Origin: a virus
Taxonomy: Duplodnaviria; Heunggongvirae; Uroviricota; Caudoviricetes
Length of the DNA stretch: 46,624 nucleotides
Virus record (IMG/VR): IMGVR_UViG_3300029858_000359
Strand: one strand, 5' to 3'
Positions 5,313 through 46,624 of the stretch are shown here, piece by piece; the first letter of the stretch is position 1, and each line of letters opens with the position of its first letter. The position numbers and the translations under genes were made by a program. The notes beneath the pieces are model-generated. The model was not told the DNA's origin. It searched no databases and worked only from the letters and a program-made list of their open reading frames with translations.

Positions 5313-5314
5313 AG

Positions 5315-5962
5315 TTAATACCCCACAGCCATCCAGTAAATTGAATTTGTTGTAGCAGAAGTGTAAGTAAATCTGATTTTAGTTCTGTTGGTACTTCCAA
5401 TATCAAAGCCCACAGAACGGGCAGAAGGATCATTAGTTGAAATAAGAGCGTTTACCGAACGACAAGCAGCAGGGAAAGCTACAGGTAATGTTATATCAAC
5501 TGTTCCAACACTTCCTCCGGTTGGTGAGACAGAAAAACTCCCCCATTGAATAATCATCCCCCCAGGTAATTTCTGGTATCCATTGGCGGTCAATGAGTTA
5601 CCAAAGCTGTTCATATCCGGTACCTGATTTTCTCCTGTCCCCACATTCCTCTTTGCCGCTTCTCCCAAACCAAGGTTTTCGAGAGCTGTTTTCACCGTGC
5701 CATCCGATTTGATATCGCCAAACGGATTCTTGCGGCTTAACAGCAGCGCACGAAGCGCGGTAAGCAGCTGGTCATGCCGCCCCTTCTCCAGGCTGGCACC
5801 GGATGCCTCCACAACGCTGCAAAGCTCCTCCTGCAACATGTCAAAGTAGTCATCATCCAGATCGGTGGCAGGCGTGCCGGTCTGGGGGTTACCACGGGTA
5901 AAACCGTTCTTACCCGCGCCGAACTTATCCTTCTGCGCGGTTTTCGTGTCTATACGATGCAT
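5315..5962 (-). CDS. Tail fibre protein: constant N-terminus (about 5686-5962) fused to the currently oriented variable C-terminus
   Basis: 215-aa ORF crossing the right crossover site, which encodes ALENLGLGE. Confidence 0.75.
5660..5685. repeat. Invertase crossover site, right end of invertible segment
   Basis: TTCTCCCAAACCAAGGTTTTCGAGAG, inverted repeat of the site at 3802-3827. Confidence 0.8.
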
Positions 5963-5965
5963 GGA

Positions 5966-6550
5966 TTACTCCGGATATTTAAAAATCACATAGGTATGCG
6001 ACGGGCAGAGTTTGTTAAGAACACACTCGACAACGGTGTCCCCCCAGAAGCGCAGCGCGGAATCACAGGGATCGCCACATGTCATCCAGGTGGTGTTGGT
6101 GGCGGCTGGCATGTTGACCTGCCAGTAATACCGCCATTCAGGCGCATTCACCGCGTCAGTACAGGCCGATGAGCAGGTGAACGTGCTTTTGTCGTATCGC
6201 GTGATGTTGGCATCCGGTCTGCCCAGGGCAGCAAGCTGTGCAAGATAAAAATTCTCGTTGATGCCGCCCGCCAGGTTAACCTTCGCATCCAGCCGTTGCT
6301 GACGCTGGCGAAGGGTCTGTGTCCCTGTAGGAATACATTCATCCGGCAGGCCGCACAGACGCTCCCAGCGATTTATCAGTTCGGTGGTGGTGCGCGGATC
6401 CAGCTCCCGCATCAGGGCATCCGCACGCTGATGAACGCGGGTTAATGACGGTGCCGCACCGGCAATCGCCGGATCGCTGGCTGACCACGCCGGACCGGGC
6501 GGCAACAGTGCTGACAACAGACGGATGTAATCATCGTTTGTCACGTCCAT
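5966..6550 (-). CDS. Phage tail protein, DUF2313 / Mu gp48-like
   Basis: 194-aa ORF between baseplate J and tail fibre; sequence reminiscent of YmfQ/gp48 family. Confidence 0.6.
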
Positions 6551-30027: not shown

Positions 30028-30350
30028 ACTTTCAGGCCCCTCTCATGTAACCAGTGGGTTGCACGCAGCCTTGCGTTTTCCTCACCGGCAAGCAGTGAGC
30101 GGATAATCCCGACCGCCTCGCTGTCGTCGTCCTTCACCGCGGTATGAAGCGTGATGCCCCGGGCCACGCCACGCTTTATCGTGATGACGCCTTTTTTCTC
30201 CAGTGCGCGAAGATGCTCCACCGCTGCATTCACTGAACGGTATCCCAGCATGGTTGCCACCTCCTGATTGGTTGGCGGGAAGCCACGTTCTTTCTGATAA
30301 GAAATCAGCATATCCAGCACCTGCTGCTGGCATTGAGTTAACGTCGTCAT
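30024..30350 (-). CDS. LexA N-terminal DNA-binding domain protein lacking the S24 peptidase domain
   Basis: QQQVLDMLISYQKERGFPPTNQEVATMLGYRSVNAAVEHLRALEKKGVI closely parallels the LexA winged-helix region; only 108 aa. Confidence 0.7.
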   Translation of the reverse strand: MTTLTQCQQQVLDMLISYQKERGFPPTNQEVATMLGYRSVNAAVEHLRALEKKGVITIKRGVARGITLHTAVKDDDSEAVGIIRSLLAGEENARLRATHWLHERGLKV

Positions 30351-31033
30351 GCCGCCATCTCCCTGACCAGTTTTTCTGCCTGCTGGCGAACCTGCGCCAG
30401 AAAGGCCTCACCACATGCCTCAAGTTCATCGCGCCCGATGTAGCTGATTGCCGGTCCCTTCCAGGTCTTGTCGAAAACAGCAATAGCACCAGCGAAGAAA
30501 GCGCCTGTCGGCACCTGCTTCTCATCCTTCGGGATAAACCAGGCAGGCAGTTCAAAACCAATACGCCCGCGAATAAAAGCAATATGATCTGCATCTTCCG
30601 GCCACCACACTTCGCTGGTGGCAGCTTTGATCAGGAAAACATAGCGCCCGCCTTTATCACGCATGGCACTGGCATGCTTCATGATGTAACGCATGCCGGT
30701 GATGTATTGCCCCTCATGCTGACTGGCGCGGCTGTATGGGGGATTACCAAAGGCAGCACCTTTAAGCTCCGCAAGGCGTTCTGACCAGTCATGCGCCAGC
30801 GCGTTGTCTTCCGCCGTGTAATACGCAGCACATTTGGCGTTATCACCGTCAGTAAACAGATCCAGAACAAACGGGCCAAACAGAGTGTTAATTCCCCAGA
30901 AAATGTTGTCCGGCGTGCGCCACTGATCGCCCACTTCCTTCAGTTCATGGGCTGGTTTGTTCCGCAGTTCCGCCAGCGCCTGGCAATATTTATTACTCAT
31001 TAAGCCCCCACGTAATTCCCTGAGAGATACCAC
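30347..31033 (-). CDS. Phage N6-adenine DNA methyltransferase
   Basis: Catalytic motif FGNPPYS; 228 aa; early-region position. Confidence 0.75.
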   Translation of the reverse strand: MVSLRELRGGLMSNKYCQALAELRNKPAHELKEVGDQWRTPDNIFWGINTLFGPFVLDLFTDGDNAKCAAYYTAEDNALAHDWSERLAELKGAAFGNPPYSRASQHEGQYITGMRYIMKHASAMRDKGGRYVFLIKAATSEVWWPEDADHIAFIRGRIGFELPAWFIPKDEKQVPTGAFFAGAIAVFDKTWKGPAISYIGRDELEACGEAFLAQVRQQAEKLVREMAA

Positions 31034-31494: not shown

Positions 31495-32432
31495 CCCCTG
31501 AATCCTGCCGGGATCTGGCTGTAGTCCACATTGTCGTAACTGGCTTTGAAGTACGGGTCTTCGCGTTTTTCTGTGTACGTGCTGACGGACGGCGATAAGC
31601 GCAGGGAAAGCTCATCCCATTTTTCCCGCAGCTTCGACGGGCTGAGCACGTTACGGCACCAGAACGGATCGCGGCTGACGCGGCTGTACATCTCGCAGAT
31701 TTGTTTGTGAGTACGACCATCCTGCACACACATCAGGCGAATTTCGTTTGCCCAGGCTGTCCAGTTAGGTTCTTTGGGACGAACCACCTCGCCGTCACAT
31801 TCGGCGGCCTGCTCGTACAGGGCGATGATTTTTTTCCAAAGCCACTGTGCGCAGGTCAAATCATCCTGCGTCCCCCACTGGCGCTTTTTAGGGCTGAATA
31901 CAACCGCATCAGGATGGAGAGTTAAAAAATCCTGTCCATCCGTCTGCGTGTCCGGTTGCGAAGCGTCCGGACGAGAAGGTTTTTTATCTGACGGATCATG
32001 TTTTGATTTTACTGACGGATCCCCGCCAGATTCTGACGGGTGAAAACCCGCTTTTTTGCCAGATTTCGACGCATCAAATTTTGACGGGTCAGATTTTGAT
32101 GCGTCAGATTTTGACGGGTCAGAATCTGACAGTTGAGAAAATGCCGCTGCCTGAAGCTTCGCAACGTTAAGCTGATAAACATTCGACGCATTACGGTTAC
32201 CCTGGCGACGCGCCTTACGCGTTAACCAGCCTTCTGCTTCCAGCCGTGCGATAGCCGTTCTGACGGTACTCATCCCCGCGCCAATCTGGCGGGCAATGGT
32301 TTCAATTGATGGCCAGCACACACCTTCGTCATTACTGAAATCAGCCAGGCGGGCCATAATTGCCACGCTGGATAACTTCATGCCTGACGCAGCGCAACCA
32401 TCCCATACATAGCCGGTTAATTTAGTGCTCAT
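31491..32432 (-). CDS. Replication initiator, lambda O-like, with internal origin iterons
   Basis: N-terminal helix-turn-helix region; coding sequence contains about 8 tandem 15-bp repeats encoding a repetitive SDPSKSDASKSD linker. Confidence 0.7.
   Translation of the reverse strand: MSTKLTGYVWDGCAASGMKLSSVAIMARLADFSNDEGVCWPSIETIARQIGAGMSTVRTAIARLEAEGWLTRKARRQGNRNASNVYQLNVAKLQAAAFSQLSDSDPSKSDASKSDPSKFDASKSGKKAGFHPSESGGDPSVKSKHDPSDKKPSRPDASQPDTQTDGQDFLTLHPDAVVFSPKKRQWGTQDDLTCAQWLWKKIIALYEQAAECDGEVVRPKEPNWTAWANEIRLMCVQDGRTHKQICEMYSRVSRDPFWCRNVLSPSKLREKWDELSLRLSPSVSTYTEKREDPYFKASYDNVDYSQIPAGFRG
31985..32140. repeat. Origin-like iterons (about 15-bp tandem repeats, consensus near AGATTTTGACGGGTC)
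   Basis: TCTGACGGATC, AGATTCTGACGGGTG, AGATTTCGACGCATC, AAATTTTGACGGGTC, AGATTTTGATGCGTC, AGATTTTGACGGGTC, AGAATCTGACAGTTG in tandem. Confidence 0.7.
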
Positions 32433-37012: not shown

Positions 37013-37231
37013 GTGGAGAAACATATGCTGAACCTCGATTGTGTTCCTATCTCAACTTATTGCAAAGAAACTGGCGAAACTCCTGAAGCAATAAACAAAC
37101 GTGTACAGCGCGGTGTTTGGCGTGAAGGTGTTCAGGTTTTAAAGGTTGAAGGCGTTAAGGAGAGGTGGATTGATCTTAGTGAGGTTGCAAAATGGGCCAG
37201 ACAAAACTGCTCAAACTACCGCGCGGCGTAA
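37013..37231 (+). CDS. Excisionase (Xis-like)
   Basis: 72-aa basic protein with GGAG ribosome-binding site, overlapping the start of the integrase gene. Confidence 0.65.
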   Translation: MEKHMLNLDCVPISTYCKETGETPEAINKRVQRGVWREGVQVLKVEGVKERWIDLSEVAKWARQNCSNYRAA

Positions 37232-38358
37232 CAATCAGGAAACACCGCCAGGGCGAAACGATCAATATAACTTTCACCTACAAAGGCGTTAAATGTCGTG
37301 AGCCTCTTTCCAATCTGGAAGTAACACCAAAGAACATTAAATACGCCGAGCGCACACTCGGCGAAATTCATAATAAGATCGAAAGGGGAACATTCATTTA
37401 TGCGGAATATTTTCCCCGTTCTGCTCGTTTGAAAATTTTTGGTAATGCTGCTGCAGGCAAAACGGTAAAAATGTACCTGGACGAATACCTTGAAATCTGC
37501 GAAACGAGAAAACTTTCACCATCTACGATTGGTGGTTATAAAAAATGCCGTAGTGCGTTAGCCTCACTCCACATTTGCCCTGCAAGTGAATTAACACCAG
37601 CAATCCTGAAAGCGTGGATTCAAAGCCAGAAAACGACCTTAAAAACAATTCGCAACCAGTTATCTTTCCTGCGGTCAGCACTTGATGAAGCCGTAACCGA
37701 TGGGGTACTTCAAATTAACCCCGTATCGTTGGTAACTGCTTCGCGCTACCAAAGTGATAAGTCAGAAGCAGAAAGCAGCTATGTGGTTGATCCGCTATCA
37801 CCAGCAGAAGTTGATGCATTACTAGCAGCAGCCGGAAACAAACAATGGGAAAATCTGTTCCGGTTCGCCATACATACAGGCCTGCGTAGTTCTGAATTAT
37901 GTGCCCTACGATGGCATGATATCGACTTTGTTGGAAAAACAGCCCATGTTCAGAGCGCAAGTGTTGTCGGAGTTATCAAAGGAACAAAGACAAAAGCCGG
38001 TACCCGTAAAGTTGAACTGACTGAAGAAGCAATGTTGGCGTTGATAAACCAGAAGCCATTTACATTCATGAAGGATGCTACTGTCTTTGAAGATCCAAAG
38101 ACCAATAAACCCTGGGCAAGTGCTGATGCAATTAGGAAAAAAGCATGGGTGCCAACATTGCGAAAAGCAGGTATTCGTTACAGAAACCCATATCAAACCA
38201 GGCATACATTCGCCACCAGACATATCAGCCGGGGAGCAAACCTGTTTTGGCTTGCAGCTCAAATGGGGCATAAAGGGCCTGAGATGCTTTTCAGGCACTA
38301 TGGCTCATATCTGAAGGAATATGATGGACAAACAAGCTTGAAGAAGATAACAATATAA
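37192..38358 (+). CDS. Tyrosine integrase of the prophage
   Basis: 388 aa; C-terminal catalytic region RHTFATRHISRGANLFWLAAQMGHKGPEMLFRHYGSY. Confidence 0.9.
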   Translation: MGQTKLLKLPRGVTIRKHRQGETINITFTYKGVKCREPLSNLEVTPKNIKYAERTLGEIHNKIERGTFIYAEYFPRSARLKIFGNAAAGKTVKMYLDEYLEICETRKLSPSTIGGYKKCRSALASLHICPASELTPAILKAWIQSQKTTLKTIRNQLSFLRSALDEAVTDGVLQINPVSLVTASRYQSDKSEAESSYVVDPLSPAEVDALLAAAGNKQWENLFRFAIHTGLRSSELCALRWHDIDFVGKTAHVQSASVVGVIKGTKTKAGTRKVELTEEAMLALINQKPFTFMKDATVFEDPKTNKPWASADAIRKKAWVPTLRKAGIRYRNPYQTRHTFATRHISRGANLFWLAAQMGHKGPEMLFRHYGSYLKEYDGQTSLKKITI

Positions 38359-38375
38359 TCCAAGCATGAAACTAT

Positions 38376-38400
38376 TGGCCACAATTTGTGGCCATTTTAC
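38376..38400 (+). terminator. Perfect 19-bp palindrome followed by T-run between int and the OLD-like gene (terminator or operator)
   Basis: TGGCCACAATTTGTGGCCA followed by TTTTAC. Confidence 0.45.
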
Positions 38401-38416
38401 GGAGCAAGATAGAAAC

Positions 38417-40150
38417 ATGGCAAATCAAATTACCAAACTAAAAAATATAAATGTTGTGAAGTTTCGCGGACTGAAAAATATAAACATCGAGTTTGGTTCT
38501 CGCCTAACTGTTATTTGTGGTAAAAATGGCACATCTAAATCCACAATTCTTGGCATTATCGCCCAAATATTTAGCTTTACAAAGGACTTTACCAAAAACC
38601 CTGAGACTGATTTAACACAATATAAAACATTAACAAATGGCAGCTTCAAGTCAGCTTTCAGCGAACATTTTAGGCTTTCAGAACAATTTGATGTTCCTGG
38701 TTCAATGGACGTCAAAATTAGTGTCTATGATGGTGCATCGAACAAACATCTTGAAAAACTAACATTAGGTTTATACAGCTACAGTGACAGAGATAAATCA
38801 AGGCCTGTAGTCAGGGGAAATGATTCAATACCGGAAAAAAACCAAAGTAGAAACGTTACTCATCCTGTTATTTTTTTAAGCTTAGCACGACTTCTTCCTA
38901 TTACATTAAGGACTGATTACTCAACACGGGATGTTCAGTACATCAATGAAAATTCTGATGAAATCAGAATGATGAGTAACCAACTCTTACTAAAAAACAA
39001 TGGAAGCTCAGTAACAGCAACAAAAGGTACTATCGATTCAATGGTTGTCCATGGTGACAATTATGATCACCAATCAGTATCTGTTGGTGAAGATAATGTT
39101 GGACAATTAATCCAAGCAATTTTTTCATTTAAAAGATTGAAGGAAACTTATTCTGATTATCATGGCGGAATATTGTTAATTGATGAAGCCGATGCAGGTC
39201 TTTTCCCTGCTGCACAGTTAGAGCTAATTAATATTCTAACTAAAGCAGCAAAACAATACGATCTGCAAATAATCATGACCTCGCACTCTCCATTAATAAT
39301 AGAGGATATCTATAATCGTTCAAAACAAGATAGTGATAGCTTTAAAACAATATATCTTACAGACACATATGGAGATATTAAAACAAAGAATAATCTTTCA
39401 TGGACAGATATCCACGCTGATTTACATGTTGAAACTGTAAAAATTAATGATGACATTTGTCTTCCAAAGGCAAATGTATATTTTGAAGACAAAGAAGGTT
39501 TCGACTTTTTCAAACAATTGATAACAGATCGAAAAATAAATAAAATATTAAATCCATTAGGGAATATAAATATTAGCTGCTCTGCCATGCTTGACTTAAT
39601 GGCAAGAAAAATACCAGAATTTACAGCTAAAAGCTTGATCGTCTTAGACGGTGATGTTGTTCACGACAATAGTGCTAATGCAAAAAAAGCCAAAAAAGAA
39701 AAAAACTTATGTTTGCTTCCAAGCACCTTACCTCCAGACCAAATGATTTTTGAGTTTTTATATAATTTACCACCTGATGATGCATATTGGGAAAATAAAA
39801 ATAAATTTACAAAAGCTGTTTTTATGAAAACAGCTAAAGACATAATTGCAACGCTAAAGATTGGTAACGCTCCGATTGATTTAAAAATCCTTATAGATAA
39901 TTATAAAAAAGTTAACAAAAACCATGGCGGGATAGTTAGAAAACTGTTTAAAGATTTTGCACATACGACTCAATTTCAGGCCCAAGTAAAAGGGCGAGTT
40001 AAAGATAACCCATATCGATATTGGGTCGAGAAAAATCCTGTGCAATCGGATAGCTTCAAGAATGAACTAATAAAGAGTCTTAAAGTTATTATGACAAGTG
40101 GACATGGTGTCGATTCTGCTACCATCTCATCATATCTGTCAGATAACTAA
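38417..40150 (+). CDS. OLD-family nuclease-like protein: N-terminal ABC/AAA-type ATPase plus C-terminal TOPRIM-like domain
   Basis: Walker A GKNGTSKST, Walker B ILLIDEADAG, TSHSP signature, C-terminal FEDKEG and LIVLDGDVVHD (Glu and DxD TOPRIM-like); start at MANQITK (ORF track start 38366 lacks a ribosome-binding site). Confidence 0.7.
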   Translation: MANQITKLKNINVVKFRGLKNINIEFGSRLTVICGKNGTSKSTILGIIAQIFSFTKDFTKNPETDLTQYKTLTNGSFKSAFSEHFRLSEQFDVPGSMDVKISVYDGASNKHLEKLTLGLYSYSDRDKSRPVVRGNDSIPEKNQSRNVTHPVIFLSLARLLPITLRTDYSTRDVQYINENSDEIRMMSNQLLLKNNGSSVTATKGTIDSMVVHGDNYDHQSVSVGEDNVGQLIQAIFSFKRLKETYSDYHGGILLIDEADAGLFPAAQLELINILTKAAKQYDLQIIMTSHSPLIIEDIYNRSKQDSDSFKTIYLTDTYGDIKTKNNLSWTDIHADLHVETVKINDDICLPKANVYFEDKEGFDFFKQLITDRKINKILNPLGNINISCSAMLDLMARKIPEFTAKSLIVLDGDVVHDNSANAKKAKKEKNLCLLPSTLPPDQMIFEFLYNLPPDDAYWENKNKFTKAVFMKTAKDIIATLKIGNAPIDLKILIDNYKKVNKNHGGIVRKLFKDFAHTTQFQAQVKGRVKDNPYRYWVEKNPVQSDSFKNELIKSLKVIMTSGHGVDSATISSYLSDN

Positions 40151-40157
40151 TTGATTA

Positions 40158-40196
40158 AAAAGGGCTTTATGTGATGGCCACAAAGCCCTTTTTTTG
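40158..40196 (+). terminator. Rho-independent terminator after the OLD-like gene
   Basis: AAAGGGCTTT-loop-AAAGCCCTTT followed by TTTTTT. Confidence 0.65.
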
Positions 40197-40229
40197 ATAT
40201 ACTTTAGATCTGACATTTAGAGGTATCAT

Positions 40230-41129
40230 ATGCGTTTTAACACCCCACTTCGCTATCCTGGCGGTAAAGGCAAGCTTGCAAATTTCATGCTTCGGCTTAT
40301 TGAAGAAAATAATCTTTCGCCTATACATTATGCCGAACCATATGCTGGGGGTGCTGGTTTAGCATTGAAACTGTTACATCTAAATGCAGCTGAAAAAATC
40401 ATCCTTAATGATATTAATATTTCTGTTTATGCTTTTTGGCACAGTGTATTAAATCATGCAGATCAATTATGTTCTTTAATTGAAAGAACTGAAGTTACAA
40501 TGGATGAATGGTTTAGGCAGAAAGATATAATTAATAATCCTAAAGACCATGATCTTTTAACAATTGGTTTCTCAACCTTTTTTCTCAATAGAACAAATCG
40601 TTCTGGAATATTAAAAGGTGGAGTAATTGGCGGTAAAAATCAAGAAGGGAAATGGAAGCTTGACGCTCGCTATAATAAGAGTGATTTGATTTCTCGAATC
40701 CATAAAATATCAGAAAATCGTCACAGAATAGATTTATATAACATGGATGCAATTGATTTCATTAAAAAAATAGTTATTCAATTGCCACAAAACTCATTAA
40801 CATATTTGGATCCACCTTATTACATAAAAGGTAAAGGTTTATATATCAACCATTATAATCATGATGATCATGTTAGGGTTGCAAAAGTCGTACAGAATAA
40901 TATTAAAACACCTTGGATTGTTTCTTACGATAACACTCCTGAGATCCAAGCTATGTATAAGACATCATCATTAGTATATGGAATAAACTACAGTGCTCAA
41001 GATCGGTACAAAGGATCTGAGGTAATGTTCTTCAGTGAACGATTGAAAATCTTTAAAACAGATGATCCAACTAAGGTAAAAGCGCCTGTATTTAAAAGAG
41101 GATGTGTTGACGACCACATCCAGACATAA
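40230..41129 (+). CDS. Dam-family (alpha-class) N6-adenine DNA methyltransferase
   Basis: Motifs RYPGGKGKL, EPYAGGAG (AdoMet binding) and DPPY (catalytic), order as in Dam; AGAGG ribosome-binding site. Confidence 0.8.
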   Translation: MRFNTPLRYPGGKGKLANFMLRLIEENNLSPIHYAEPYAGGAGLALKLLHLNAAEKIILNDINISVYAFWHSVLNHADQLCSLIERTEVTMDEWFRQKDIINNPKDHDLLTIGFSTFFLNRTNRSGILKGGVIGGKNQEGKWKLDARYNKSDLISRIHKISENRHRIDLYNMDAIDFIKKIVIQLPQNSLTYLDPPYYIKGKGLYINHYNHDDHVRVAKVVQNNIKTPWIVSYDNTPEIQAMYKTSSLVYGINYSAQDRYKGSEVMFFSERLKIFKTDDPTKVKAPVFKRGCVDDHIQT

Positions 41130-41201
41130 AAGGAGCCGCAAAAGATCCGCAGAATAAAATGGTTAGTATTAATCGTTTTATTTCAGCTAATTATAAAAAT
41201 A

Positions 41202-41234
41202 CGGACTCGGGTTCAACTCCCGCCAGCTCCACCA
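41202..41234. repeat. attR of the prophage and attL of the following P4-type island: copy of the ssrA 3' end
   Basis: CGGACTCGGGTTCAACTCCCGCCAGCTCCACCA, 32 of 33 identical to 1028-1060. Confidence 0.85.
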
Positions 41235-41399
41235 CTTTTTAGTTGTTTGAAGTTCAATGAAGTCTACTAAGCCCACACAGCACAAGCTCTGCGGGCTTTT
41301 TTACGTCTATTGTCGTCCAGTGAGAATTGCTGAGAACTACGAGTTATGGCACCCTGAATGGGACCCACTAAGAAGGGTCCAAAAACCGAGGGTCCCAAA

Positions 41400-42629
41400 A
41401 TGGCAAAAATCGCTAAGAAGCTCACTGACACTGAAATCAAAAGCACCAAGCCAGCCGATAAAGAAATCAACTTGTTTGACGGTGATGGTCTGATTCTACG
41501 AATCGCTCCTTTGGCGAAAGGAGGCAAGAAAAATTGGTATTTCAGGTATGCAGTACCAGTGAGCAAGAAAAGAACCAAAATGAGCCTTGGGACATATCCT
41601 CACCTTACCCTTGCAAGAGCCAGAGCCTTACGTGATGAATATCTCTCCTTTCTGGCAAATGGTGTTGATCCCCAAATCCATAACAACGATAAGGCGAAGG
41701 CATTAAAGAGTGCTACTGAGCACACTCTCCAAGCCGTAGCGCGGAAATGGTTAGATGAGAAGGTAAAGACATCAGGTATCTCACAAGACCATGCAGCAGA
41801 CATCTGGCGCAGCTTAGAGAGAAATGTCTTTCCCGGTCTGGGTAATGTCCCTATCAATGAGATCCGACCTAAGCTCTTAAAACAACACCTTGATCCTATT
41901 GAGCAACGAGGCGTATTGGAAACTCTACGCCGTATCATTTCACGTCTGAATGAAATCTTCCGGTGGGCAGCTACTGAAGAACTTATTGAGTTCAACCCGG
42001 CTGACAACCTTGGTCAAAGATTCAGTAAACCAAAAAAGCAAAATATGCCTGCCCTTCCCCCAAGCGAATTGCCAAGGTTTATGGAATCTTTGACGAATGC
42101 GTCAATCCGGTTGGAAACACGTATGCTAATTGAATGGCAATTGTTGACATGGGTTCGTCCGGGTGAAGCCGTTCGCGCAAGGTGGTCTGATATTGATACA
42201 ACCAACAGCATTTGGAACATTCCTGCTGATTTCATGAAAATGAAAAAGCTTCACAAAGTTCCTTTGAGTAAAGAAGCTTTGCGCATCCTTGAATTAATGA
42301 AATCAATAAGTGGGCATAGAGAATGGGTTTTCCCCAGCATAAAAGCGCCTCTTAATCATATGCATGAACAAACAGCCAACGCAGCTATCATCCGAATGGG
42401 GTTCGGAGGCGAGCTTGTAGCTCACGGTATGCGTTCTATTGCACGAACAGCGGCAGAGGAGTCTGGTAAATTCAGAGCTGAAGTTCTTGAGGCAGCGCTT
42501 GCCCACTCGAAAAAAGATGAAATTATCGCAGCATACAATCGTGCAGAATATCTGATAGAGCGACAGAGTTTGATGCAATGGTGGAGTGATTACGTTCAAG
42601 CTCAAAGATCAAATGCTCTGGTAGCCTAA
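41400..42629 (+). CDS. P4-type tyrosine integrase
   Basis: N-terminal arm-binding region LFDGDGLILRIAPLAKGGKKNWYFRY typical of P4/CP4-57 integrases; C-terminal catalytic region AHGMRSIARTAAEE...AALAHS; start taken at MAKIAKK. Confidence 0.85.
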   Translation: MAKIAKKLTDTEIKSTKPADKEINLFDGDGLILRIAPLAKGGKKNWYFRYAVPVSKKRTKMSLGTYPHLTLARARALRDEYLSFLANGVDPQIHNNDKAKALKSATEHTLQAVARKWLDEKVKTSGISQDHAADIWRSLERNVFPGLGNVPINEIRPKLLKQHLDPIEQRGVLETLRRIISRLNEIFRWAATEELIEFNPADNLGQRFSKPKKQNMPALPPSELPRFMESLTNASIRLETRMLIEWQLLTWVRPGEAVRARWSDIDTTNSIWNIPADFMKMKKLHKVPLSKEALRILELMKSISGHREWVFPSIKAPLNHMHEQTANAAIIRMGFGGELVAHGMRSIARTAAEESGKFRAEVLEAALAHSKKDEIIAAYNRAEYLIERQSLMQWWSDYVQAQRSNALVA

Positions 42630-42667
42630 GTATCATAATAGCTAATATAATCCTGAAGGTAAAGAAA

Positions 42668-43084
42668 ATGGAAACCCTATTCAAAGTTTTTGAAAAATTT
42701 AGTTCCAGACCACTTTTTTTTATTTTTTTCGGACTCTCACTTTGTGAATTTTTTCAGAAACAATCTGTTCTGATGAATCCATCAGCAGATAACATCGCGA
42801 AATTATTCGCAGCCATGATATTAGTTGTTTTTTTTACTTGGGGATTTGAATGGCTAATCTTCAAGTTCAATGTAAACCTTGAACCTCATGATCAAGGCGA
42901 TATTGGACCAACAATTGGAACGGCTACTTTAGCTGTATACTTAGTTTATGCCTTTCACTTTCTCAGTGAAAATCCTGAAGCATTAAATTTAAAGTTATTA
43001 ACTAACTCTGGCTTTATATACAGCACAACTCTATTATTATTCTCATTAGAATGCATGAAGCTTAGAAGACTTAAACAAAAATAA
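42668..43084 (+). CDS. Hypothetical polytopic membrane protein, 138 aa
   Basis: AT-rich ORF with GAAGG ribosome-binding site; several hydrophobic helices. Confidence 0.5.
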   Translation: METLFKVFEKFSSRPLFFIFFGLSLCEFFQKQSVLMNPSADNIAKLFAAMILVVFFTWGFEWLIFKFNVNLEPHDQGDIGPTIGTATLAVYLVYAFHFLSENPEALNLKLLTNSGFIYSTTLLLFSLECMKLRRLKQK

Positions 43085-43155
43085 ACAACATCATTGTGAT
43101 GATAAATATAAAATAGGCATGGCGAAAAAAAATCACCACGCCTAAAATATAATAA

Positions 43156-44922
43156 TTATGGTAGCATCATTGATACATAATCCACACCAATCCTTGAGCT
43201 ATACTGAGACGCTATAGCCTGATATCTTTCTGCATAACCAGTTCTCAGTTGAGATTTAAGTTTGAGTCGGACAGGAACATTTTGCACGTTGCCATCCATA
43301 TTACTTAAAAACACGGCAGAAATAATATTTTTTTCTTCGCCATCAACTGTTGTTCCATGATTCAACACCACCATATAATCAACAACAGGAAGCGTTTTAT
43401 CCCCTTCGAAAATAGAGAGATATTTTCTTTGATTTTTATGCATTACATATATATATTTCGAATGTTCAGCAAATGGCAATGCTTTACTCTGACTGGCGTT
43501 AAAAAGCTCCAGAACTTTAATGAGCCTGTGCGGACTTAATCTTACATGGTGAGGGTCGTTACCCTGAGTAGGAACCAAATCACATGCCGCAGATACACAT
43601 AAATACCATTTGTTCGACTCTGTATCAAAGAAAATAGTGCCAGTAGAAATATGACCATCTTCAAAATTCTTTGAAGACAAATTCATATTTAAAGCATGAT
43701 ACATTTCGTGATAAGTATCATTATTTGATGGCAGATCCATTTTTGAAGAGCAATATTGGAGCAATGCAGCAACTCCGCTGTTAGCGTATTCATTTGAATA
43801 GCTATCAAAAACACTTTTGATAAATTCATCCAGCGTATTATTATTTTTAAGTCTTTGATAAAGCTCTTCTGATAAATTACCAAATACAAAGTCAATATTT
43901 CTACATCTAATATCAGGCGAGTCTGATTTTAATATCTCATTTAACCACGCAGCTTGACCGTAATGATCGTTAGCCAAATGATTTACAAAAGATAAAGCCT
44001 CAGCTTCGATTGCATTCTGAATTTCAGATTTTATTAACTGATAATAAGATGGTTTCCATTCAATGAGAGAATCATTGAGAGTTTGCCAAATCCTATCTCC
44101 ATCGTTTTCATGATCATCTTGAACCTTATGAAATAGGGAGACAAAGATATTACCACATTGAATCCATTTTACTCCGCTTTCATCACCCCGAATGACATTG
44201 CCAGATGTGTTGCTAGAAATAATTGCATTTCTAGACACAGCATATTCTGCAATCATTTTTGCAATGAAGTTTTTATCCTTTTGATCCTCCAACACAGCAT
44301 CATCATGTATTAATCTTTTAATTCTTCTACAAGGCTTACTGTCTTTAATATAGGCTATTGTTTCATCTCTTGTGAGAGCTTTATTACCATTATCATTTAA
44401 GTTCGGTAATACAACGTCTTCCCAATAACTTTGGACATCTTCATTATCGTAGTCAATGATCAAGCTGTTGATATCCAGAGCACCTTTGAGAGTCGATGAT
44501 ATCTGCATCCAAACCGTTTCTAAATTCTCTCTAGTATATATTACAATCATATTTAAATGATCGGAGTCTTTCAAATCTTGTAATAGTTTAAGTGTTTTAT
44601 CAGGTGCATTATTATCAAGATGATAATCTACAATAATAAGATCTGATTTTCTAATCCGATCCACATCGAAATTAACAGAACCATTGTCAACATCACAAAT
44701 CATATTTTTAGATTGAAAAAAGCTCTCAAGAGTAGCGGCTCGTTTAGATGAGTCAATTTTGTTGTAGTCTAAATCAACTTCGTTATTCAACGCCCTGATT
44801 GATTCAGAATACGTCAGAAAATCGTCATCAATCATGACAACGGAACGAATTGCATTTTCGCAGAAAGTTTTCTGGACAAGAGAATTATAAATTGCCACTG
44901 TCATATTAGAACTCCACTCCAT
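43156..44922 (-). CDS. Receiver (REC)-like domain protein with about 430-aa C-terminal domain of unknown function
   Basis: N-terminal region VVMIDDD ... SDLIIVDYHLDNNAPDKTLKLLQDL ... NMIVIYT follows response-regulator receiver topology; no DNA-binding output recognised; start overlaps the stop of the upstream kinase-like gene. Confidence 0.6.
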   Translation of the reverse strand: MEWSSNMTVAIYNSLVQKTFCENAIRSVVMIDDDFLTYSESIRALNNEVDLDYNKIDSSKRAATLESFFQSKNMICDVDNGSVNFDVDRIRKSDLIIVDYHLDNNAPDKTLKLLQDLKDSDHLNMIVIYTRENLETVWMQISSTLKGALDINSLIIDYDNEDVQSYWEDVVLPNLNDNGNKALTRDETIAYIKDSKPCRRIKRLIHDDAVLEDQKDKNFIAKMIAEYAVSRNAIISSNTSGNVIRGDESGVKWIQCGNIFVSLFHKVQDDHENDGDRIWQTLNDSLIEWKPSYYQLIKSEIQNAIEAEALSFVNHLANDHYGQAAWLNEILKSDSPDIRCRNIDFVFGNLSEELYQRLKNNNTLDEFIKSVFDSYSNEYANSGVAALLQYCSSKMDLPSNNDTYHEMYHALNMNLSSKNFEDGHISTGTIFFDTESNKWYLCVSAACDLVPTQGNDPHHVRLSPHRLIKVLELFNASQSKALPFAEHSKYIYVMHKNQRKYLSIFEGDKTLPVVDYMVVLNHGTTVDGEEKNIISAVFLSNMDGNVQNVPVRLKLKSQLRTGYAERYQAIASQYSSRIGVDYVSMMLP

Positions 44923-46624
44923 TGAACTGGATCACAAAATTAGCGCCATCTTTTATTAAATAGTTATCGCCTTCATCAGGTTCTGAATACCATATTTTAT
45001 GATGTGCAACAGCAAGGTTTTCTCGACATAGATACAGACCTACCCCATGTCCATTTGCTCTTTTGCTATAAAATAGTTCAAATAGTCACGGGATATCATC
45101 GGTATCAATTGCCGGACCAGAATTTGCTATGATAACCAAAGAATTCACAAAACCAATCTTTATGAGCCTATTATTTGACAGACTGACCCAATACATTGCA
45201 TTGTTGATAATATTAGTAAAAACAGGATAGATCCTTGATGGTATATCTGTTATTGCGATTTGCTTAAACTCTTCACTAAATTCAATAGTTATTCGTTGCC
45301 GTTCGAAACGCTCCCCAAAGAACTTCAGGACATAATCCATGATATTTTTTCCAGTTATTCTCTGCCTGGATTGATAACCTGATATTTTCAAAGGTGATAA
45401 GAAACGTATTTGTTGAGTAAGCGATCTGTGAGCATTTAACGCCAATGAAAAACCAGGGTGTTCTTTTACAGAAGTAGGAAGAGAGTTTAGTCCTCTGGTT
45501 ACCATAGAATCCATTTCTTCAAGTTCATGAGATATTATCTCAACACTAATACCTAACTGTGCAAGCGCGTTTAAACTTTTAGCTTTTTCTTCAAAATATG
45601 AGCGTTCTTCTTCAGATAATGAGAATGCTGAATCTAAGTTTATACCTTCAAATAATCTATCGAGACCTTTTATTATTGATTGATATTTGAAAGTTAGGGT
45701 ATCAACTGACTCAACATATAAACTATCGAGCAAATTAAACACATTTTCAATTTGTGAATCATTATCTATTGAATCAACAACTGATATAGTTTTAGCATAA
45801 TAATCACTTCGATCAACCTTTATTTCATCGGCCCATTTTTTTAAAAGAGAATGTATCTTCTCCTCTATCGTGTTATTAAACTTAGTTAGTTTAGAATTAA
45901 TAATACCTTGATTTTTTTCAAGGTGATTTTTCGCTGACAATGAAGGCTCAAGTTTATTTAATTCAGAATCAAGTTTATTAATTGCTAACTTCATTTGTAG
46001 AATATACGCAGAGAACTCATTAAATTTATCTCTGTAGTCTCTATATTTCTCTTCATACATTCCAAGTTTTGGAGGTTTGATAGGCGTTTTAATTTCACTG
46101 CGCAACGCATCTAAGTTTGTAAGATCACTGTCTATAATTTTAAGATAGTTTAAATCTAACGAACCATCAGTTTTATCAAGCTTAGTTTTCAGCCTTTTAA
46201 CAGCCTCCAAGGAAGCATCAAGAACTGGTGTCTGATTCTTCAAAGCTTCTGAAAAACTTTTTTGTGTTGATTTTCGAGCTTGTTGTTGAGCAGATTTTCT
46301 TAACTCTTTTTCACGCTTAACTTGTTCTAAAAGCTCTTTACGGTCATCAGAACGTGAACCAAAAAATCTATCAGCAAGTTCAGTTAACAAATTAGATATA
46401 ATAGTTTTCAGTTCTCTTGCAGCCTGGTTTCTTATGAATCCCTCTCTCCCCGACTTATCTTTCAGCTCTTTATTACTGGATTGAGTAATTCCAATATAAC
46501 CAAAAATCCTTCTATTAGACCAATAATATCGCCCTGCATTCCATGAACGTCTTTCTTCTATCTGGAAGAAATCATTATCTACTCGACCATAAGGTAATAC
46601 TCTCAAGCTATCCCTAAAAATCAT
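44906..46624 (-). pseudogene. Histidine-kinase-like gene interrupted by an in-frame TGA (45086-45088); N-terminus beyond the window
   Basis: H-box-like SHELEEMDSM, N-box NIINNAMYW, G1 IANSGPAI, then in-frame TGA, then same-frame LFELFYSKRANGHGVGLYLCRENLAVAHH (G2 box) ending at the TAA at 44906. Confidence 0.55.

Follow-up and report, generated by a model that had tools for sequence, protein, structure and literature searches.

The window analyzed here, a 46,624-nucleotide (nt) stretch of DNA from a virus record (IMG/VR IMGVR_UViG_3300029858_000359), is Escherichia coli chromosome, with 100% identity to strain S6aCHROMc and 99.1% identity to strain 042. It contains a prophage of ~40 kb integrated in the transfer-messenger RNA gene ssrA (698 to 1060), and between the integrase of this prophage and its right attachment site (attR) lies a cassette of two plus-strand genes, one encoding an OLD-like ATP-binding cassette (ABC) ATPase (38417 to 40150) and the other an adenine DNA methylase (40230 to 41129). 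An earlier inspection of the letters alone (the sequence-only reading) had singled out this pair as a possible restriction-modification (RM)-like or exclusion module. The comparative analyses presented below suggest that the cassette is probably a two-gene, methylation-coupled anti-phage module that travels as prophage cargo and represents a variant of the PD-lambda-5 system in which the effector has been exchanged. It can equally be described as a methylase-linked lineage of OLD-like proteins, and in neither description does it found a wholly new category of systems. In the mechanism that we propose, the methylase, apparently transcribed from its own promoter in E. coli, would mark adenines of host and prophage DNA as self. 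The ATPase protein would be the effector, with its ABC-type head binding and hydrolyzing ATP and sensing a trigger, most likely unmethylated incoming DNA or the loss of methylase function. Its TOPRIM-like, putatively metal-binding C-terminal domain would then cleave nucleic acid, which may be DNA or may be tRNA or other RNA.

Linkage of the ATPase and methylase genes

The ATPase alignment was scanned against one genome per species, which gave 80 loci in six phyla (Pseudomonadota, Bacteroidota, Actinomycetota, Thermodesulfobacteriota, Acidobacteriota, and Bacillota), a phylum count that may be inflated by recent transfer or misbinning because many of the loci are metagenome bins and some of their methylases are identical across genera. 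In 78 of the 80 loci, a methylase homolog is found no more than ~2 kb from the ATPase relative, and the other two loci stop at the ATPase gene, at contig ends. The methylase is downstream on the same strand in 74 loci, most often separated by a 2-bp gap or overlapping by 4 to 14 bp, and the pairwise identities of the two proteins are correlated (Spearman 0.89; 2,346 pairs from 69 loci). No third neighboring gene family is universal across the 80 loci. These data support the view that the ATPase and methylase genes form one functional, obligately linked pair. The pairing proposed in the sequence-only reading is thus borne out in other genomes as a mostly overlapping or 2-bp-spaced operon, and its fallback reading, in which the methylase is an independent orphan, does not hold up against the linkage in 78 of 80 loci.

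The same data bear on whether the two genes could be independent pieces of cargo, an orphan anti-restriction methylase and a stand-alone OLD-like exclusion protein that merely share a slot. P2 Old works alone, the prophage already has an unlinked phage-type Dam, and a terminator-like hairpin and a promoter-like site lie between the two genes in E. coli, all of which would suit such an arrangement. However, it is already contradicted by the co-occurrence data, since the linkage holds across phyla in closely spaced or overlapping frames, the two proteins have diverged in a correlated way, a validated two-gene system joins an effector to this same methylase family, and no other neighbor family is conserved across the loci. 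We therefore consider independent cargo genes very improbable.

The exact ATPase and methylase proteins are found on roughly 900 to 1,000 public contigs, where they carry no more specific names than "AAA family ATPase" and "DNA adenine methylase." This abundance, together with homologs in several phyla, indicates that the two open reading frames (ORFs) are real genes rather than chance ORFs. The cassette is also present in Salmonella, Shigella, Klebsiella, Citrobacter, Pseudomonas, and Acinetobacter, and its other settings include an integrative and conjugative element (ICE), the icd-integrase junction of another prophage, and positions beside type III Mod/Res genes.

A conserved third gene was considered and rejected, as SNF2 helicase, DUF4391, and type III Mod/Res genes flank only ~10 to 20 of the 80 loci. 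In locus L075 (1888 to 11841) and ~10 to 20 similar loci, the pair is placed between an SNF2 helicase (1,068 aa)/DUF4391 and a type III Mod-like methylase; the hosts are many Burkholderiales and some Bacteroidota bins, and a type III Res helicase also occurs in 10 loci. Identical methylase scores in six loci of different genera suggest that a single island spread recently, and the flanking SNF2, DUF4391, Mod, and Res genes are probably parts of one widely transferred island.

The methylase belongs to the PD-Lambda-5_B family

The methylase gene (40230 to 41129) encodes a 299-aa protein, assigned to the alpha-class (D12) N6-adenine DNA methyltransferases of the PD-Lambda-5_B family. This ORF, picked out in the sequence-only reading by its RYPGGK, EPYAGGAG, and DPPY motifs, matches Pfam MethyltransfD12 (PF02086; E value of 2.2e-19), the PADLOC Type II methylase model MTase_II (3.7e-107), and, most strongly, the PADLOC model PD-Lambda-5_B (PDLC04018; 5.1e-124, over residues 1 to 282). 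EPYAGGAG at residues 36 to 43 precedes DPPY at residues 194 to 197, which is the alpha-class motif order and agrees with a D12 enzyme. M.EcoGII, a nonspecific prophage adenine methylase, was considered as a relative and rejected, because it is a beta-class enzyme with an N-terminal DPPY. Across 20 diverse methylase homologs, the motifs PLRYPGGK, EPYAGGAG, and DPPY do not vary. Conservation extends over the full length of the protein, including residues 113 to 147, which suggests that the family shares one sequence specificity.

The methylase had been called a second Dam-family enzyme. The prophage does encode two adenine methylases, and the cassette enzyme matches the D12 model; however, it scores only 54.1 bits against the NCBIfam Dam equivalog TIGR00571, below the cutoff of 114.85. 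The other methylase, encoded on the minus strand at 30347 to 31033 in the prophage early region, is a phage-type Dam (PF05869, 1.2e-45; NPPY motif) and belongs to a different family from the cassette enzyme.

PD-lambda-5, listed as "ParB/HEPN, methyltransferase," comes from strain ECOR7 and was isolated by selection for phage resistance; in E. coli, the ECOR7 system, the only one for which this was reported, protected against all but one of ten phages (Vassallo et al. 2022, PMC9519451). It could be cloned only in a host deleted for mrr, a requirement that suggests an active methylase (PMC9519451). The membership of the cassette methylase in the PD-Lambda-5_B family makes the cassette an effector-swapped relative of this validated system. 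A true PD-lambda-5 locus at the P2 hotspot (L085) matches PD-Lambda-5_A at 1.4e-167 and PD-Lambda-5_B at 1.4e-121, the latter on a par with the window methylase, to which its methylase is 51% identical. Other methylase relatives in E. coli genomes lie beside a convergent ParB/Srx protein matching PD-Lambda-5_A, downstream of antiterminator Q in a prophage-like cluster (L084), beside an ATPase gene at the icd-integrase junction of another E. coli prophage (L083), and beside an ATPase gene inside an ICE of E. coli (L082). Among all window ORFs, no PD-Lambda-5_A relative was detected by phmmer with two PD-Lambda-5_A proteins (E values up to 10), and no PD-Lambda-5_A model is among the best PADLOC matches of the window ATPase. 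The earlier statement that the cassette fits no named defense system therefore holds only in part, given the PD-Lambda-5_B match of the methylase at 5e-124.

The exchange of partners beside this methylase is directly visible in viral contigs. Scanning these contigs with the methylase alignment yielded 61 loci whose methylases are at least 38% identical to the window methylase. The neighbor is of the PD-Lambda-5_A type (ParB/HEPN) in 30 loci, of the ATPase type in 19, and of both types in 2; the remaining 10 have neither or reach a contig end. A hidden Markov model of the ATPase C-terminal domain is also matched in 18 of the 21 loci that have an ATPase. The two partner types do not separate in a neighbor-joining tree of 130 methylases but are intermixed. 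The clearest case is the pair L116 and L115, whose methylases are 93% identical and whose DNA similarity comprises the methylase gene (87%) and the upstream flank (78%), while the genes between are unrelated, an ATPase (3.6e-153 to the window protein) in one and a PD-Lambda-5_A type protein in the other. In addition, three-gene composites of ATPase, ParB/HEPN, and methylase genes occur in several different gene orders, both in genomes (L003, L010, L035, and L079) and in viral contigs (L095 and L096). The four genome composites are loci in which the methylase is not directly downstream on the same strand.

Since near-identical methylases are paired with unrelated effectors, the effector likely has no sequence specificity of its own and relies on the methylase or on the general methylation status. 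On a broader and more tentative view, to which we give somewhat less than even weight, the methylase would anchor a modular immune system, in which it licenses or guides interchangeable effectors (the ParB/HEPN protein, the OLD-like ABC ATPase with its TOPRIM-like domain, or the two together), and self would be told apart from foreign DNA by the methylase or by the overall N6-methyladenine status rather than by the effector. If this is true, the ATPases would constitute a new methylase-linked class of OLD-like proteins, and the cassette would stand for an RM-like type whose ATP-dependent TOPRIM enzyme reacts to unmethylated DNA. Two unrelated effectors on nearly the same methylase also amount to a natural swap experiment for PD-lambda-5, and whatever couples the effector to the methylase must suit both ParB/HEPN and ABC/TOPRIM-like proteins.

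The ATPase has an OLD-like architecture and a distinct C-terminal domain

The ATPase gene (38417 to 40150, plus strand) encodes 577 aa from the start given by RefSeq and by the homolog alignment; an alternative first ATG at 38366 would give an ORF (38366 to 40150) of 594 aa. The ORF contains GKNGTSKST, ILLIDEADAG, TSHSP, NVYFEDKEG, and LIVLDGD, which bears out every motif quoted in the sequence-only reading, and the key residues of these motifs are invariant. Pfam AAA_15 (3.8e-15) and AAA_21 (4.1e-12), the two families that had been suggested for a profile search, match over the N-terminal ~315 residues, and PHROG 3940, of unknown function, spans the protein end to end (1.7e-200). In 35 homologs with 50 to 88% identity, the Walker A residues G35, K36, N37, G38, T39, K41, and S42, the signature-like S222-G224-E225-D226, the Walker B residues D256 and E257, and H290, S291, and P292 are invariant. 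The protein thus has the Walker A, signature, Walker B, and H-loop elements of the N-terminal ABC-type ATPase of the OLD family. PADLOC models of PtuA, AriA, and GajA match only the ATPase portions, with PtuA the best at 3.7e-20 and the GajA matches confined to short ATPase stretches, and none of the 25 best PADLOC matches is a restriction enzyme model.

A full-length AlphaFold2 model of the protein (predicted local distance difference test [pLDDT] of 86.8) has as its best Foldseek matches in the PDB GajA (8sm3_A, 1e-11) and Thermus scotoductus OLD (6p74, 5.9e-11), followed by Retron PtuA and Rad50/SMC heads. The model supports an OLD-like overall architecture. The OLD-family assignment in the sequence-only reading accordingly holds at the level of architecture, but the C-terminal domain is not recognized by TOPRIM or OLD profiles.

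This C-terminal half comprises a TOPRIM-like core at residues ~350 to 450 (39464 to 39766) and a helical domain at residues ~451 to 577 (39767 to 40147). In a separate model of residues 340 to 577 (pLDDT of 95; predicted template modeling score of 0.90), the core has four strands alternating with helices, and the placement of E357-D358 after strand 1 and of D411-G-D413 after strand 3 follows the TOPRIM pattern. The second domain is all helical in the model and has conserved W458, R508, F511, and K512 in the homolog alignment. E357, D358, D411, and D413 do not vary among the 35 homologs, nor among 18 methylase-linked ATPases of viral contigs that have diverged very far. Profile comparisons gave no link to a known family: Pfam and PADLOC had no match in the C-terminal half, a profile of the region had none among PDB sequences, Foldseek with the C-terminal model alone returned nothing significant, and Pfam had no match in this region of ten distant family members. 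An hhalign comparison of the core profile (70 sequences, the window sequence plus 69 representatives) with P2 Old, YbjD, and an RloB protein gave probabilities below 2%, with the low power of single-sequence targets. In a phmmer search of 1.84 billion representative sequences, no more than 193 clusters contained the C-terminal region, which almost invariably spans positions ~340 to 570 in proteins of 500 to 600 aa. The domain is therefore best called TOPRIM-like on the basis of its modeled fold, and its sequence distribution marks it as a small, distinct lineage.

Relationship to other known systems

The cassette ATPase resembles the Class 1 OLD proteins (P2 Old, T. scotoductus OLD, and E. coli YbjD) in combining an N-terminal ABC-type ATPase with a putative C-terminal metal-site domain, bearing a Glu and a DxD, in one polypeptide. 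T. scotoductus OLD is its second-best full-length structural match, and the cassette, like P2 old, is prophage cargo. In contrast to Class 1 OLD proteins, which are described as stand-alone, the cassette ATPase lineage is tied to a methylase, its C-terminal domain matches no TOPRIM or OLD profile (including the hhalign comparisons with P2 Old and YbjD), and the insert in its ATPase head is beta-rich in the model. Gabija GajA provides the best full-length structural match, and PADLOC GajA models match the ATPase part; however, the partner in the cassette is a methylase rather than the GajB helicase, and a UvrD-like helicase gene is found neither in the two-gene cassette nor as a conserved neighbor in the 80 loci, where only the methylase family is conserved.

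PARIS (AriA plus AriB) and pairs of an AbiL-like ATPase with RloB likewise couple an ABC ATPase to a TOPRIM-type effector, and in E. coli O103:H2 the integrase-attR slot of the cassette is filled by an ATPase-RloB pair. In those systems, however, the two domains are separate proteins and there is no methylase, and the hhalign comparison of the cassette core profile with the O103:H2 RloB protein, as a single-sequence target, was not significant. Type II RM systems share with the cassette an adenine methylase beside a putative nuclease, and the methylase has its own promoter-like site in E. coli. The putative nuclease of the cassette is instead an ATP-dependent OLD-like protein, no restriction endonuclease of a known family is seen among its 25 best PADLOC matches or in the C-terminal half, and the association of unrelated effectors with near-identical methylases is hard to square with an independently sequence-specific nuclease. 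With PD-lambda-5, the cassette shares the methylase family, the two-gene composition, the position of the effector upstream of the methylase, prophage hotspots, and the exchange of partners at one site. It differs in its effector, which is an ABC ATPase with a TOPRIM-like domain instead of a ParB/HEPN protein.

The ABC ATPase classification of Krishnan et al. from 2020 may describe related ABC-anchored RM-like systems. A limited literature search found no described system combining an ATPase/TOPRIM protein with an adenine methylase, and a word search of a review of OLD proteins (PMC10568477) gave no match to "methyltransferase." A paper on an OLD-family gene and a methyltransferase in Pseudomonas aeruginosa PAO1161 was set aside as irrelevant, because its two genes are not linked and have been found to work independently of each other.

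If confirmed, the cassette would add a methylase-linked lineage to the OLD-like proteins. Since PADLOC 2.0 has no model for the ATPase, and its PD-Lambda-5_B and Type II methylase models recognize the methylase by itself, we expect such loci to go unnoticed or to be classed as incomplete systems or orphan methylases.

The cassette is variable cargo between the integrase and attR

The cassette lies in a slot whose left edge is the prophage tyrosine integrase gene (37192 to 38358, plus strand; Arm-DNA-bind_2, 5.5e-23; Phage_integrase, 1.2e-16) and whose right edge is attR (41197 to 41234), a copy of the ssrA 3' end. The latter is a 38-nt direct repeat that is 92% identical to the left attachment site (attL; 1023 to 1060), the last 38 nt of ssrA. 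The slot contains exactly two substantial ORFs, both on the plus strand, and its GC content is 0.30 to 0.35 over 38400 to 41100, compared with 0.43 to 0.53 in the adjoining prophage. The integrase end, the att repeat beyond the cassette, and the AT-rich DNA between them are all as they had first been read. An integrase with 95 to 98% identity is present in 412 complete E. coli genomes, but the cassette is found in only 85 (of 5,426 complete genomes). When the integrase-attR slots of related prophages (L168, L169, and L170) were compared with that of the window (38358 to 41197), other cargo was found: an STAS-like gene and two hypothetical genes in strain S88, a single 259-aa hypothetical gene in strain p4A, and an AAA ATPase plus RloB family pair in O103:H2 strain CEC12044. 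The last of these we take, from its annotation, to be of the AbiL/RloB defense type. The integrase-attR junction is therefore a variable cargo site, and the cassette is one of several alternatives that occupy it, which bears out its first description as junction cargo.

The cassette is also carried by Citrobacter phage phiNP (L166, OR565852.1), in which an intact 293-aa methylase ORF (5314 to 6195) directly follows the ATPase gene. The phiNP feature table gives a coding sequence for the ATPase and none for this methylase ORF. phiNP is spontaneously released and infects and lysogenizes phiSM lysogens, which were made in E. coli K-12 (PMC6456863). It may therefore be a tractable natural carrier of the cassette.

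All of the E. coli and phage copies examined sit on mobile elements (prophages, the P2 hotspot, and an ICE), and many RM pairs act as addiction modules. The cassette could thus stabilize its prophage or ICE, with the loss of the element diluting methylation until a long-lived effector kills the cell, and defense would then be a side effect. We regard this as improbable, given that the sibling PD-lambda-5 came from a selection for phage resistance, that the slot also houses other defense-type cargo, and that decayed copies with a broken effector or with both genes broken exist. A nonsense codon interrupts the ATPase at residue 425 in a metagenome bin (L074, 1869 to 3536) whose methylase is intact, and both genes are broken in Symbiopectobacterium (L002) and in Listeria rocourtiae (L081). 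Decay of this kind is in keeping with the usual loss of genes, whereas strict addiction should work against it. The asymmetry of gene decay was considered as a test of RM logic and dropped, as the cases are too few (one with only the effector broken, two with both genes broken, and one possibly with only the methylase broken).

Target of the putative effector

HEPN domains are usually RNases, and the alternative partner of the methylase, the ParB/HEPN protein, carries such a domain. OLD-type TOPRIM effectors have recently been reported to be tRNases, P2 OLD in the title of a preprint and AriB in PARIS, and Retron-Eco7, which encodes PtuA/PtuB, degrades host tRNA-Tyr according to an abstract. 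The tRNase reports and the HEPN domain make an abortive-infection guard the main rival explanation, although we consider it rather unlikely. In this alternative, the methylase or its methylation would keep the ATPase effector silent until a phage blocks methylation, depletes S-adenosylmethionine, or floods the cell with unmethylated DNA, and this interference would release an effector that cuts tRNA or other RNA and stops the growth of the infected cell while sparing the phage DNA (compare PrrC with EcoprrI, and PARIS). In conflict systems, HEPN, TOPRIM, and restriction endonuclease domains are known to take one another's place on a common N-terminal module (PMC3710099), and this, like the three-gene loci combining ATPase, ParB/HEPN, and methylase genes, would agree with a guard. 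Against this, there is no separate restriction nuclease in the cassette for such an effector to back up, and GajA and the Class 1 and Class 2 OLD enzymes cut DNA, according to abstracts. Most of the evidence for a guard is, moreover, common to the explanation that we prefer, from which the guard differs only in target and outcome.

Several points weigh against the preferred explanation, a methylation-coupled module related to PD-lambda-5. The first is the set of tRNase reports on P2 OLD, AriB, and the PtuA/PtuB system, in a title and abstracts as given above, by which, together with the usual RNase activity of HEPN domains, simple DNA restriction is not assured. The second is that PADLOC 2.0 has no model for this ATPase, and hence no curated system definition stands behind the assignment. 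The third is a locus in the complete genome of Diaphorobacter aerolatus (L058, 7700 to 7940), where a frameshifted methylase lies beside an intact ATPase ORF. This would be unexpected if the effector kills unmethylated self, although the frameshift falls within a run of six Gs (G6) and may have arisen in sequencing.

The fourth is the terminator between the two genes in E. coli, which permits their separate expression. The E. coli cassette has a 79-bp spacer between the genes, and this hairpin spacer is the enterobacterial version, most other loci having a 2-bp gap or an overlap. The terminator noted in the sequence-only reading is confirmed as a hairpin (40157 to 40193, plus strand) with a predicted RNA folding energy of -17.1 kcal/mol, followed by a U run that ends at 40195. 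None of 200 shuffled sequences folds as well (z score of -4.2). A promoter-like site for the methylase gene (40175 to 40203, plus strand; TGGCCA, a 17-nt spacer, and TATACT, with a TG extended -10) matches the consensus at 9 of 12 positions; it overlaps the hairpin, the number of such sites in the region is no greater than the shuffled expectation, and the site is only suggestive. With the hairpin, the U run, and this site between the genes, the methylase may be transcribed separately in E. coli.

Other features of the window

Directly after attR lies a second integrase gene, of the P4 type (41358 to 42629), and beyond it is an AT-rich island encoding, on the minus strand, a 588-aa Response_reg_2 protein (PF19192; 43156 to 44922) and an ATP-binding protein with an HEF_HK domain (PF19191; from 45086 to beyond the window end). 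In this part of the window (41358 to 46624), the Response_reg_2 and HEF_HK genes look like a two-component-like conflict pair; for the 588-aa protein, PADLOC gave no meaningful match. Elsewhere in the window, a 30-nt unit (CAGATTTTGACGGGT-like) is repeated four times at 32060 to 32134, with the copies overlapping at a spacing of 15 nt, and these repeats look like replication-origin iterons or a regulator binding array.

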